A stretch of DNA of 64,000 bases, taken from positions 73,434 to 137,433 of IMG/VR virus record IMGVR_UViG_3300009037_000004, one strand, 5' to 3'. The position numbers and the translations under genes were made by a program. The notes below the pieces were generated by a model. It saw nothing but the letters and a program-made list of their open reading frames with translations, was not told the DNA's origin and made no database searches. This document shows positions 53,445 through 59,653 of the stretch, one piece after another. This stretch comes from a virus. Its lineage: Duplodnaviria; Caudoviricetes. Numbering within the stretch: the first letter of the stretch is position 1; each line of letters opens with the position of its first letter.

Positions 53445-54035
53445 TTAGGTCAATCGAATGAACGAGGTCGGAGTGATCTGGAAGCTCATCTTCTTCCCGT
53501 CCGCCAGGAACCTCTGGGCTACTCCCGCCAGGGCTGCTCCCGCCATCCCATGGAACCAGAGGTTCTCCCCGTCCTCGCAGGTGGCCTGCCCCGTCTCACC
53601 CTCTGGGTCGGGGGTGAAGTGCTCGGTCCAGATGACCCGAGCCACATCCCCGGCGGCGGAGAGGCAGCCGTGAAGGCAGGGGATCGCATGACGGTAGATG
53701 TGCTCCTTCACGTACTCCTGCAGAAGCAGACGAGCCTCCAAGTTGTCCGTGCAGTCGATCACGAGGTCCACGTCCTTTAGAAGCGGAGACACGTTGTACC
53801 CCTCCAACTTCACGGGAAAAGCCGCAATCGGACGGCGGAAGAGGCCACTCATCGACGCCTCCAGAGCCTTCGCTTTCTGCTTCCCACTTCCCATGTGGGA
53901 ATGAAACTGGGAGGCGATGTTCTTGGCTTCCACCCGGTCATGATCGATCACCACTAGGTGGGCCTTCCAGTTCCTTGCGAACTGAACGACGTGGGAGCCG
54001 AGCGCCCCCACGCCCACGATCGCCACGGTCTTCAT
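53445..54035 (-). CDS. E1/ThiF-family adenylyltransferase
   Basis: VGVGALGS, IDHDRVEAKN..SQ, K, VIDCTDNLEAR, late 'ATCED' Cys; AGGAGG RBS. Confidence 0.88.
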   Translation of the reverse strand: MKTVAIVGVGALGSHVVQFARNWKAHLVVIDHDRVEAKNIASQFHSHMGSGKQKAKALEASMSGLFRRPIAAFPVKLEGYNVSPLLKDVDLVIDCTDNLEARLLLQEYVKEHIYRHAIPCLHGCLSAAGDVARVIWTEHFTPDPEGETGQATCEDGENLWFHGMAGAALAGVAQRFLADGKKMSFQITPTSFIRLT

Positions 54036-54241
54036 GCGTCCTCCTTCTGCACTTTCCGATTCAGTTCCCTTCGCCCAAGTTCCAGAAGCCATCGGAAAGT
54101 GGTAACACGACACCCTGCCCGTGCCAGGGAGAAATGGGACCTGTTCTCACCCGCCCCCTCCAAACGCCGCATCAGGGACTCGAAGCACTCCAAATCCGCT
54201 GGTGACACGGACACCGAGAAGATCGTCTTCTTGGCGATCAT
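54032..54241 (-). CDS. Small hypothetical protein
   Basis: Coupled to the E1 start. Confidence 0.4.
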   Translation of the reverse strand: MIAKKTIFSVSVSPADLECFESLMRRLEGAGENRSHFSLARAGCRVTTFRWLLELGRRELNRKVQKEDA

Positions 54242-54244
54242 CTG

Positions 54245-54850
54245 TCACCTCGACTTCTCATGGACCCGGAGAGGGATGTCCCCCAGCGTTTCCACCAGAC
54301 GCTCGTTCGCGTCCCTTTCTGCCGGCATGAGCATCTGAGAGACCTTCAGGTAGTAGGGGGACCGAAGCCAGTCAGCGTACTTCATCTGGCCCCGAGTCTT
54401 GTTGCAGCGCCGGCAACAGGCCACGAGGTTCTCCGGGATGCTGGGGCCGCCCTCCTCCCAGAGGACCAGATGGTCTACTGTGAGGGGCACGCCATGGCCC
54501 GTGCCGCAGTACCGGCAATGGTAGCCGTCTCGGCTGTAGACTTTCCAGGAGATGCCCTGCTCGATCTGGCGGGTGCTCTTGCGGATGATGGCCTTCACCA
54601 GCGTCCCGTCCTTCGCCCTGGTGAGAACCTCGGTCTCCATGATGTCCGTCTGCCGGATGACCTTCTCCCAGTCCTCCTGGTCGAGCTCCAGGAGTCTGGG
54701 CTGCCTCCCATCCCACGGCTCGTCCGGCAGCATGGCGAGGTAGCAGATCTCCGAGTTGGCGTAGATGACTCCAGCGACCTGGATGGTATTCCCCAGCTCG
54801 AGCAAGTCCATCTGGTTGAGTCCGTACCGGGGAACTTCCTCCGGCCTCAT
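54245..54850 (-). CDS. HNH endonuclease with N-terminal extension
   Basis: RDG..CRYCG, LTVDH, ENLVACCRRCN; start overlaps the Ubl stop (ATGA). Confidence 0.8.
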   Translation of the reverse strand: MRPEEVPRYGLNQMDLLELGNTIQVAGVIYANSEICYLAMLPDEPWDGRQPRLLELDQEDWEKVIRQTDIMETEVLTRAKDGTLVKAIIRKSTRQIEQGISWKVYSRDGYHCRYCGTGHGVPLTVDHLVLWEEGGPSIPENLVACCRRCNKTRGQMKYADWLRSPYYLKVSQMLMPAERDANERLVETLGDIPLRVHEKSR

Positions 54851-55275
54851 CCCTTCACCTGCGGGATCGTCATGTCCCAGACGGCTCCCTCGGGCGTGGT
54901 GATTGTTAGGATGCCAACCTCCTCCTTGAGATCGCACCCCAGGCTCGAGAGCAGCTTGTAGATCTCCGCCTTGATGTCCGTCCACCCGAACGGCGTCTTC
55001 GGACGGAGCATCAGGCGGGGCGGGAGCTCATTGGTGGCCGGGAAGCGATCCACCACGAAGTCCTGGAAGTTCACTTCCGCCGCCGTGACTCCCGGGATGT
55101 AGCCGGTGCGGACCGCCTCGGTTGCCACCTGCTTCACATCCCCGTCCGTCATGTCGTAGCGCAGGGCGTCCGGGTAGTCCCCGTTCTGCCCGTTCACGGT
55201 CACGTTGAGCCGGGCGTTCGGCCCGCCCAGCTCCACCCCCGCCTCGTTCCTAACGATGATCTCGTTGTTCTCCAT
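54847..55275 (-). CDS. Ubiquitin-like (beta-grasp) protein with 45 aa extension after RPKTPFG
   Basis: Strand-strand-helix pattern, 'LMLRPKTPFG', context between JAB and E1. Confidence 0.6.
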   Translation of the reverse strand: MENNEIIVRNEAGVELGGPNARLNVTVNGQNGDYPDALRYDMTDGDVKQVATEAVRTGYIPGVTAAEVNFQDFVVDRFPATNELPPRLMLRPKTPFGWTDIKAEIYKLLSSLGCDLKEEVGILTITTPEGAVWDMTIPQVKG

Positions 55276-55288
55276 CGGTGTCCTCCTT

Positions 55289-55663
55289 TCACCGGGACAG
55301 AGCCCGTAGTTTCGCGATGACCATGCGTTTGAGACGTATCCGCCGCAAACGCATAGGCCCGTAATCCAACCGATCGGGGCCGACCCACTCGAAGTAGACC
55401 ACCTCCGAGAAGGTCACGATCGGCCAGATCAGTCGTTGACCCAACCCCTGCTCCACTGCCGCGAATGTCGTCACGTCAGTGGAGGAGGGTTGGGCCGCCC
55501 CATTCCATGGATGCGTGTGGGCCACGCCACCCAGCCGCTCTCGATTCTCCCAGAGACGCTCCCAGAGTCCTCGGCTGTCTGGGATAGCTCCCTGACTCCT
55601 GTCGGCCGGCAGGTGCCAGAAGAGGACGCACCCACGATCATCGAAGACGAGTGCCGTCTCCAT
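55289..55663 (-). CDS. JAB/MPN metallo-isopeptidase
   Basis: N-terminal Glu; HTHP...PS..D. Confidence 0.8.
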   Translation of the reverse strand: METALVFDDRGCVLFWHLPADRSQGAIPDSRGLWERLWENRERLGGVAHTHPWNGAAQPSSTDVTTFAAVEQGLGQRLIWPIVTFSEVVYFEWVGPDRLDYGPMRLRRIRLKRMVIAKLRALSR

Positions 55664-55671
55664 CGGTCCTC

Positions 55672-56001
55672 CTAATCCAGTCCGAAGGGCTCGAGGGCAT
55701 CGAGCATGCGTTGGCAGAACTCCTCTTCCTCATACAGGCGGTCAATCTCAGCTTCTGCTTTCTTGCTCTCCCGCAGCATCTCGTCTTCCTCATCCATCAA
55801 CTGCATGAGGCGCATGTCCTCCGCCATGTCCTTCGCCATCTCCCGCTCCCATTCGAGTTCCTGAAGGTCTCGCATGATCTCTTCTTCCTCACGCCGGTCT
55901 GCCTCGGCCTGCTTCTGCTCCTCCGGCGTGAGACGCTCCTCCTCTTCCAAGTCCCTCTTCCAGTCATCATCATCTCTTCGTGCTGAACCCTGCACGATCA
56001 A
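55672..56001 (-). CDS. Very acidic helical protein
   Basis: Glu/Asp-dominated; coupled ORF. Confidence 0.5.
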   Translation of the reverse strand: MIVQGSARRDDDDWKRDLEEEERLTPEEQKQAEADRREEEEIMRDLQELEWEREMAKDMAEDMRLMQLMDEEDEMLRESKKAEAEIDRLYEEEEFCQRMLDALEPFGLD

Positions 56002-59102: not shown

Positions 59103-59188
59103 TGATCCGACATCTTTCCGTTTCCCTAACACGATCTCCCCGGATTACCGGCGACAGCGTTAGTGTACTAGGGCGGACAATCGGATCA
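59103..59188 (-). ncRNA. Irregular long hairpin RNA
   Basis: TGATCCGA/TCGGATCA, CTAACGC/GTGTTAG, CCGG-TAAT-CCGG. Confidence 0.45.
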
Positions 59189-59195
59189 GATAAGA

Positions 59196-59349
59196 GGTCA
59201 TGGGATGATGGGGGGACTTGAGGAGTTGAACCTCATCTTGTAGGCCCATCAGTTTGATCCCCGAAGAGATCGAGTAGTCGGGCGGGTACTCTTGATTCCA
59301 CATCAAGTGCCTGTCCGCCAGGCTCTAGTCCCCCCACCATCCCATGACC
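59196..59349 (-). ncRNA. tRNA mimic 2 (23 bp acceptor-like stem, motif domain in variable arm)
   Basis: ACCCGC...GCCTACAAGA insert with a CTTCGG hairpin. Confidence 0.75.
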
Positions 59350-59351
59350 AA

Positions 59352-59477
59352 GGCGCCGGAGCTGGGAGTCGAACCCAGTTTCTTGTAGGCCCAATCTGGT
59401 GACCTCCGAAGAGATCGAGTGACCGAGCGGGTATTGATCGATGGAATAATCGATTGACCGCCGTGGTCGTCTCCGGC
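59352..59477 (-). ncRNA. tRNA mimic 3
   Basis: GCCGGAG/CTCCGGC acceptor, T-arm, same insert motif. Confidence 0.75.
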
Positions 59478-59485
59478 AAAAGCAG

Positions 59486-59614
59486 TGGGGAGCCCTGGAT
59501 TCGAACCAGGATGTCTTGTAGGCCAGCCTTATTGGGACTCGAAAGTCCCGAGACGGTTAGCGGGTGTTTGCTTGATTTACCGTCAAGTGCCTTTACCAAT
59601 TCGGCCAGCTCCCC
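59486..59614 (-). ncRNA. tRNA mimic 4 (Tyr-like GTA, G33, ~58 nt variable region)
   Basis: Canonical D/T arms, loop CGGTAAA, same insert motif. Confidence 0.8.
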
Positions 59615-59625
59615 ATTCACGGATC

Positions 59626-59653
59626 AGTATAGCGTCTCGTTTCAGTTTGTCAA
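59626..59653 (-). promoter_or_regulatory. Near-consensus sigma70 promoter for the RNA/TROVE/Ubl unit
   Basis: TTGACA-16-TATACT, 11 nt upstream of mimic 4. Confidence 0.75.

Follow-up and report, generated by a model that had tools for sequence, protein, structure and literature searches.

A cluster of tRNA-shaped RNAs and protein genes in a large uncultured phage is described here. The DNA analysed (the window) is the final 64 kb of the 137-kb IMG/VR virus record IMGVR_UViG_3300009037_000004, and the cluster occupies its positions 53445–59653 on the minus strand (Table 1). The RNAs belong to a new structured family. They are followed by genes for a 633 amino acid (aa) protein with a von Willebrand factor A (vWA) domain, a 325 aa cysteine protein (p325), a JAB/JAMM metallopeptidase (JAB), a candidate ubiquitin-like protein (Ubl) and a ThiF/MoeB-type activating enzyme (E1). 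A preliminary description had treated the RNAs, the vWA protein and the E1, JAB and Ubl genes as one unit, and this unit is found conserved across phage and bacterial loci. Since the parts form one conserved unit, their joining is not a local accident. The reading proposed here, that one to several tRNA-shaped RNAs act together with the vWA protein, p325, JAB, Ubl and E1 as an RNA-protein module, is about equally likely to hold or to fail.

The RNA family and its link to the gene set

RNAs 1–3 of the window and three RNAs situated 5′ of the vWA gene of locus L005 align to one structure. The common structure of the six consists of a 7-bp acceptor stem, an anticodon arm, a two-part extra arm at the position of the variable arm, and a canonical T arm. 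RNAalifold, applied to the six sequences independently of any model, shows 20 compensated pairs. A covariance model was built from the same six RNAs; matches to it of 100–200 nt with at least 40 bits are termed long matches. In a scan of all 64 kb of the window, RNAs 1–3 are the only long matches.

The preliminary description had predicted that such RNAs would be found next to homologues of the genes. In 40 of 60 phage sources long matches adjoin the module, directly upstream of the vWA gene or downstream of E1. They are also present in 10 of 18 phage-like loci on contigs of metagenome-assembled genomes (MAGs), seven of which display no tRNA by ARAGORN. In five near-complete jumbo phages (452–619 kb), 12 of the 14 long RNA matches lie at the module locus. 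Copies in Verrucomicrobiota and Terriglobales are situated between the vWA gene and p325 (L092, L099) or downstream of the vWA gene (L087), and these retain the CUCG and ACAAG sequences. Weak matches in myxobacterial chromosomes, without exception on the coding strand, cluster just 5′ of the vWA gene. The folds and the covariance scans of phage and MAG loci thus show a tRNA-like module encoded beside the gene for a putative ring protein, which is the arrangement of YrlA-type RNAs.

The aligned family has 70 members with a median length of 131 nt and an extra arm of ~55 nt. Over the 70 sequences 95.1% of cells are paired, compensatory changes are found in 29 of 30 pairs, and the covariation score is 0.93, compared with 0.21 in shuffles and at most 0.17 with partners slid; the alignment was fitted to the covariance model and is thereby biased towards the structure. 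Invariance is seen in CUCG and UACAAG, which bound the extra arm, and in the T loop. The anticodon loops show 60 different sequences among the 70 RNAs, 23 of the loops depart from 7 nt in length, and position 33 is frequently a base other than U. The family therefore does not display the 7-nt anticodon loop, U33 and conserved identity of decoding tRNAs. With 70 members and strong covariation, it is a well-supported addition to the structured RNAs. A constant extra arm combined with variable anticodon arms suggests, from the sequences, that the RNAs may consist of a handle plus a bait.

Conservation and distribution of the gene set

Relatives of the vWA protein number more than 1600 in metagenomes. 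Of 63 huge-phage loci from IMG/VR, 47 show the full order vWA-p325-JAB-Ubl-E1; the other 16 are cut by the locus end or stretched by inserts. All five genes are found in the same order in many GTDB loci as well. These form a phage-like branch, with 50–56% identity, on MAG contigs mostly of Myxococcota, and a cellular branch, with 36–39% identity, which is chromosomal in Cystobacter, Corallococcus, Myxococcus, Pyxidicoccus and Archangium and is also represented on Verrucomicrobiota and Terriglobales contigs. Phages carry the module in a tRNA array, and in Myxococcota it is chromosomal. The flanks are syntenic across genera of Myxococcaceae, where the vWA-p325 part is the best-kept stretch and E1 is found 10–13 kb downstream on the same strand, with unrelated genes between. 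Myxobacterial genes situated between JAB and Ubl (GH31, GMC oxidoreductase, DUF1684) were considered as parts of the module and rejected as unrelated. Because it is present in stable chromosomal loci of Myxococcaceae that have no tRNA array, the module is not phage-specific.

The closest GTDB relatives (L068–L085) are on contigs binned with Myxococcota MAGs (Kofleriaceae, Sandaracinaceae, Polyangia). The binning hints at the host range of the phage group, but mis-binning is possible.

Two further genes, for an acidic protein and an HNH endonuclease, had been counted with the module in the preliminary description and are here removed from it. Neither the acidic protein nor the 69-aa open reading frame has a homologue in the 63 IMG/VR loci, and p325 and JAB are less than 50 nt apart or overlap in 19 loci. 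The position of HNH is variable: across phages the gene is found at different intergenic places, after Ubl, after p325 or after the vWA gene. It behaves like a mobile insert of the homing-element type.

A search of a phage collection for near-identical DNA gave no match; at the protein level there is a match to Virus Rctr197k alone, with 50% identity. No description of the module was found in the literature on Ro60/YrlA, jumbo phages, vWA-MoxR systems or Bub/Bil/CBASS. Surveys of jumbo phages do mention TROVE proteins (PMC7824862).

The Ubl candidate, JAB and E1

The Ubl family has a core of ~85 aa, and the sequence RPKTPFG is found in 37 of 50 distinct members. Eight of the 50 end at the Gly, 28 carry 1–5 extra residues and 14 have longer tails; the tail in the phage described here is 45 aa. 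Eight compact modules have no JAB. In five of these (L074, L076, L080, L081, L102) the Ubl ends exactly at the conserved Gly, and in two there is an in-frame Ubl-E1 fusion, whereas the Ubl ends at the Gly in only 2 of 34 GTDB modules that have JAB. A role of JAB as the Ubl-trimming enzyme fits this distribution, JAB-less modules mostly ending at the Gly and JAB-bearing ones seldom. In L070 (6111–6995), L083 (3469–4339) and L085 (6104–7000) the frame of Ubl extends into that of E1, giving tails of 198–223 aa; these frames are possibly Ubl-E1 fusions or assembly errors.

The motif, the spread of tail lengths and the JAB-less modules are consistent with the idea that the small protein, termed Ubl-like in the preliminary description, is a Ubl precursor with a removable tail. 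Its C-terminal Gly is either free or would be freed by trimming, and it is encoded together with an E1, an arrangement characteristic of ubiquitin-like and sulfur-carrier proteins.

The JAB and E1 assignments hold, the catalytic motifs of both being intact. The JAB metal-site residues E2, H49, H51, S60 and D63 are invariant, and Prok-JAB matches 29 of 30 family members (best E-value = 8e-9). E1 retains the nucleotide-binding Gly motif, DxxDN, and the conserved Cys in ...TCEDG.... Its best curated matches in NCBIfam are the ThiF and MoeB adenylyltransferases, which places it among E1 enzymes of the ThiF fold. By analogy with these, E1 activation of the C-terminal Gly is a well-founded expectation. 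PADLOC E1-E2 models match E1 at 2e-14, but over their E1 part only. No other PADLOC or NCBIfam system model matches, and the recognisable E2 and system partners of Bil, Bub and CBASS Cap2-Cap3 were not found with these models.

The vWA protein and its possible relation to Ro60

The predicted structure of the vWA protein shows an N-terminal beta domain (33–97), a helical region (103–418) and the vWA domain (421–600), with a predicted local distance difference test score (pLDDT) of 75.7 and a predicted template-modelling score of 0.44. Pfam VWA covers residues 423–546. The metal ion-dependent adhesion site (MIDAS) is intact, residues D428, S430, S432, T491 and D519 being invariant; the protein thus displays a C-terminal vWA/MIDAS domain.

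The preliminary description went further and called it TROVE-like. This identity finds no signal at the sequence level. Pfam shows no match to TROVE (PF05731) in the phage's own record, sequence searches of the five jumbo phages that carry the module gave nothing for TROVE, and the family profile run against PDB sequences gave no Ro60. A full-length hhalign comparison with TROVE gives E = 0.004 with a probability of 8% over residues 210–436, a span that takes in part of the helical region and just reaches the start of the vWA domain. At the fold level there are leads. Foldseek aligns the Ro60 chains 9kop, 9nep, 9l5y and 1yvp over 535–580 columns with E ~1e-5, and TROVE, Ro-like and DUF2828 proteins are among its top full-length viral look-alikes. 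The language-model clusters nearest to residues 1–418 carry TROVE or DUF2828, with a score of 0.84 that serves as a lead only. From the predicted model we lean towards a Ro60-like protein.

p325 and the E2 question

The model of p325 shows two OB-like barrels (15–135), a long helix (164–205) and an alpha/beta domain (207–301) with an invariant C258 and the invariant sequence G271-x-C273-L274. The best structural matches of the barrels, which are weak, are the OB domains of Mpa/PAN and S1/cold-shock domains. A wide structural search gives Mpa OB domains as the best match (Z = 4.9), and for the alpha/beta domain an RWD domain (Z = 4.1). The alpha/beta elements follow in the order helix, four strands, the invariant Cys273 and helix, which fits a UBC/RWD-type fold.

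The UBC fold that had been predicted for this protein was not found by Pfam, profile comparison with the PDB, Foldseek, the wide structural search or hhalign. The Pfam E2 families match none of 40 p325 members, the p325 profile gives no E2 in the PDB, a language-model atlas yields no usable match, and the HPN motif is absent. p325 may still take the E2 role in the module.

Proposed function and alternative explanations

If the conserved parts act as one RNA-protein module, the following steps may be pictured. JAB would trim any tail after the Gly of Ubl. The ThiF-type E1 would adenylate this Gly and take it onto its conserved Cys, and from there Ubl would be handed to a target protein, perhaps with Cys273 of p325 as an intermediate. 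The constant extra arm would be the site at which the vWA protein binds the RNAs, in the manner of Ro60 and Y RNAs, and the OB barrels of p325 may touch the RNA too. The resulting ribonucleoprotein (RNP) would thereby select or gate the tagging. The most likely role of such a module is in surveillance of, or conflict over, tRNA-binding factors.

Several results weigh against this reading. With the covariance model the RNAs are not found in 20 of the 60 phage sources, many of these loci being incomplete, and the matches in myxobacterial chromosomes are weak. For the vWA protein, Pfam at E-values up to 10 gives neither TROVE nor DUF2828 in 35 family members, and hhalign of the N-terminal parts against TROVE gives no signal (P = 0.26). 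The Foldseek alignments with Ro60 have template-modelling scores of ~0.2 and may ride on the vWA domain; a second structural aligner finds the vWA domain only (Z ~15). No E2 is present among the Foldseek or wide structural hits of p325, and an hhalign comparison with Prok-E2_B, using a shallow alignment, shows no similarity (P = 0.66). The Ubl profile finds no relative among known Ubls in the PDB or Pfam.

The constant extra arm with variable anticodon arms favours an RNA-guided choice of targets. A specific form of the module reading is an RNA-programmed tagging in which the extra-arm handle is held by a Ro60-like vWA protein, the anticodon-arm bait catches tRNA-binding proteins, and E1 and p325 attach Ubl to them; this form is unlikely as it stands. 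The baited proteins could be, for example, anticodon nucleases or modification enzymes, and in an alternative version cleavage of the bait would switch the tagging on. The preliminary description also suggested that the RNP acts in an E3-like way, that anticodon nucleases are its targets and that it serves phage counter-defence; all three ideas are conjectural.

A first alternative is a particle for quality control or repair of the Ro60/Y RNA type, in which Ubl only regulates the particle, for instance by modifying the vWA protein or p325, and no foreign protein is tagged. In CBASS, Cap2 likewise modifies a part of the system it belongs to. The layout and neighbourhood of the module recall rsr-yrlA, where several tRNA-like RNAs are encoded beside the ring-protein gene (PMC4201824), and the fold-level leads to Ro60 point the same way. 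However, TROVE is unproven by Pfam and hhalign, the conserved set includes no nuclease, ligase or PNPase partner, and hypervariable anticodon loops suit a bait more than a fixed regulator. We regard such a particle as improbable.

The E1 chemistry could also belong to a sulfur-carrier pathway. E1 would thiocarboxylate the Gly-ended protein, as in TtuB/TtuC, Urm1/Uba4, CysO and QbsE, for thiolation of the phage tRNAs or tRNA-shaped RNAs, and JAB would only mature the carrier. JAB-trimmed carriers are known in CysO/Mec+ and QbsE/QbsD. The E1 is minimal, with ThiF and MoeB adenylyltransferases as its best curated matches; no E2 is detected in the module by Pfam, structure search or hhalign; and the phage modules sit in tRNA arrays. 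On the other hand, no rhodanese, cysteine desulfurase or PP-loop thiolase of the TtuA/NcsA type is found in the conserved set, the Ubl C-terminus is FG and not GG, and the chromosomal copies have no tRNA array. This pathway would also leave the always-linked vWA protein, p325 and the dedicated RNAs unexplained, and we think it doubtful.

That there is no functional link at all, the long RNAs being unusual class-II-like members of the tRNA array, with the protein genes a separate cassette nearby by chance, is very improbable: RNA 1 does match the Rfam tRNA model and carries GUA while no tRNA-Tyr is listed in the window, but the loop size is irregular in 23 of the 70 RNAs with position 33 often not U, and mere adjacency is unlikely since MAG loci without tRNAs carry the RNAs and 12 of the 14 matches in whole jumbo-phage genomes are at the module.

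Comparison with known systems

The systems used for comparison with Ro60 and Y RNA are Salmonella rsr-yrlBA-rtcBA, M. smegmatis YrlA/YrlB and the Ro60 of Thermus phage phiLo (PMC4201824, PMC12135203). Like Ro60 (Rsr), the vWA protein falls in the range of ~550–630 aa, is helical in its N-terminal part and carries a vWA/MIDAS domain at the C-terminus. As in Ro60 systems, several small RNAs that mimic tRNA are encoded beside the protein gene, probably cut from one precursor, and phages and bacteria alike carry them. Unlike Ro60, the vWA protein has no TROVE at the sequence level and has an added N-terminal beta domain. The RNAs keep a full cloverleaf with the conserved domain at the variable-arm position, whereas the Ro60-binding stem of YrlA replaces the anticodon arm, and in contrast to Y RNA and YrlA they match only the tRNA family of Rfam. 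In addition, the module always comes with the E1/Ubl/JAB set, which Ro60 systems do not.

With archaeal SAMP/UbaA/HvJAMM1 and Thermus TtuB/TtuC the module shares a minimal ThiF/MoeB-type E1, a small Gly-ended carrier and a JAMM peptidase, and likewise has no recognisable E2 or E3. It differs in that Ubl ends in FG instead of GG and shows no sequence similarity to ThiS, MoaD or SAMP. Sulfur-transfer partners are absent, and dedicated RNAs and two coupled proteins, the vWA protein and the OB/Cys protein p325, are present.

With CBASS Cap2/Cap3, Bil and Bub (PMC11601596) the module has in common E1 chemistry, a peptidase of the JAB type, a Ubl that possibly needs trimming and a setting of phage-host conflict. 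Unlike these, the module has no detected E2 domain, cyclase or known effector, has RNA and a vWA protein, and is common in phage genomes themselves. The vWA-MoxR 'FtsH ternary' systems (PMC7159879) also couple a vWA protein to JAB, E1 and Ubl and are found in bacteria of complex life style, e.g. Myxococcota. However, the module has no MoxR or FtsH ATPase, RING E3 or caspase-like effector, its vWA protein has a different N-terminal part, and RNAs are present.

Should the genetic link prove physical as well, the module would be the first ubiquitin-like pathway of prokaryotes to include a dedicated RNA, and it would bridge RNA surveillance of the Ro60/Y RNA type and protein tagging, a connection only loosely seen in animals in the pairing of Ro60 with Ro52/TRIM21. 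The module is frequent in huge phages and fixed in Myxococcaceae chromosomes; some of these bacteria are culturable and genetically tractable, which makes the idea testable at the bench.

Organization of the locus and its four RNAs

The unit is bracketed by tRNA-Thr (59668–59741) and tRNA-Glu (53336–53408) and so lies inside a tRNA array; ARAGORN lists 42 tRNA genes and one tmRNA gene flanking it in the window, all on the minus strand. All of the open reading frames reported earlier are present. The eight genes follow the RNAs in the order vWA protein, p325, acidic protein, JAB, Ubl candidate, HNH, 69-aa open reading frame and E1, and are densely packed, with gaps of 3–13 nt or ATGA/TTGA overlaps. 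A Pfam scan of the unit proteins finds VWA, Prok-JAB (weak for this member), HNH and ThiF. For E1 a start at ATG 54035 is more likely than one at 54113, and for HNH the more likely start is ATG 54850.

Table 1. Features of the phage unit, listed from 5′ to 3′ along the minus strand (window coordinates).
Feature	Position	Strand	Evidence and remarks
Promoter TTGACA-16-TATACT, sigma-70-like	59626..59653	minus	just after tRNA-Thr, before RNA 1; 11/12 matches
RNA 1, tRNA-shaped, 129 nt	59486..59614	minus	Rfam tRNA 47.8 bits; own covariance model 127.3 bits; fold
RNA 2, tRNA-shaped, 124 nt	59354..59477	minus	fold; own covariance model 111.1 bits
RNA 3, tRNA-shaped	59196..59349, core 59334–59211	minus	fold −85.4 kcal/mol; own covariance model 104.7 bits
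RNA 4, differing build	58950..59190 (approx.)	minus	fold, Rfam, ARAGORN
vWA protein, 633 aa	56981..58882	minus	Pfam VWA 5e-6; predicted structure; conserved MIDAS residues
p325, Cys protein, 325 aa	55998..56975	minus	predicted structure, pLDDT 90.8; invariant residues
Acidic coiled-coil protein, 109 aa, 38% D+E	55672..56001	minus	no homologue in related loci
JAB/JAMM metallopeptidase, 124 aa	55289..55663	minus	Prok-JAB 6.5e-5; invariant metal-site residues
Ubl candidate, ~97-aa core + 45-aa tail	54847..55275	minus	core end RPKTPFG
HNH endonuclease, 201 aa (more likely start, ATG 54850)	54245..54850	minus	Pfam HNH 1.3e-9
69-aa open reading frame	54032..54241	minus	start and stop coupled to neighbours; not conserved
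ThiF/MoeB-type E1, 196 aa (more likely start, ATG 54035)	53445..54035	minus	Pfam ThiF 8.2e-20

The promoter is present as first described. It is the sole such site in 53300–59800, where 0.9 such sites would arise by chance, and the match by itself therefore lacks significance; a similar promoter precedes the RNAs of the closest relative, L005.

Four related tRNA-like RNAs had been reported behind this promoter. RNAs 1–3 do share a cloverleaf with a long extra arm, and the 10-mer GCCTACAAGA is found in all four, on the minus strand at 59523, 59390, 59245 and 59072; RNA 4 is built differently. The fold of RNA 1 shows a 7-bp acceptor stem, a D arm, an anticodon arm, an extra arm of ~57 nt and a canonical T arm, and its match to the Rfam tRNA model has a 57-nt insert. 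RNA 2 has the same build with a non-canonical size of the anticodon loop, and in RNA 3 the acceptor stem is extended to a helix of ~23 bp. As read from the folds, position 33 is G in RNAs 1 and 3. RNA 4 consists of a long 5′ hairpin and a 14-bp closing helix followed by seven U; the helix encloses the 10-mer GCCUACAAGA, which abuts a tRNA-Ile(AAU)-like body (58989–59064). RNA 4 is not matched as a long RNA by the covariance model. In a cmscan of 58800–59800 at E-values up to 10, tRNA (RF00005) is the only significant Rfam family, with no match to a Y RNA or YrlA model.

The anticodon position of RNA 1 reads GUA, but the base at position 33 is G. tRNA-Tyr is not listed by ARAGORN among the 42 tRNAs of the window (45760–63945, minus strand). 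The loop CGGUAAA of RNA 1 recurs in 5 of the 70 family members.

Metatranscriptome contigs from a wetland, from two runs of one study, cover RNA 3 and RNA 4, within 58968–59476, and parts of all genes. One contig spans 59176–59326 (RNA 3), a weak result indistinguishable from DNA carry-over. Because phage DNA is present in runs of the same study, transcription is not proven by these contigs.

The 8-mer CCTACAAG was considered as a marker across loci and rejected, being next to the module only in L005 and L064. It has six more minus-strand copies in the window, four of them within sequence resembling Tyr-Lys codons, the copy at 61566 between two tRNA-Ser genes, and the remaining one in the loop of a hairpin that precedes the tmRNA. 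A fourth RNA copy with the variant motif GCCUACACG is found in L005 at 6670–6786. Rfam also finds a tRNA (56 bits) at 50071–50144 on the minus strand that is missing from the ARAGORN list. The 8-mer CCUACAAG forms the loop of a 9-bp hairpin at 52137–52160 (minus strand), which ends ~20 nt ahead of where the tmRNA gene begins (5′ end, 52136); this 8-mer may be a shared processing or binding signal.

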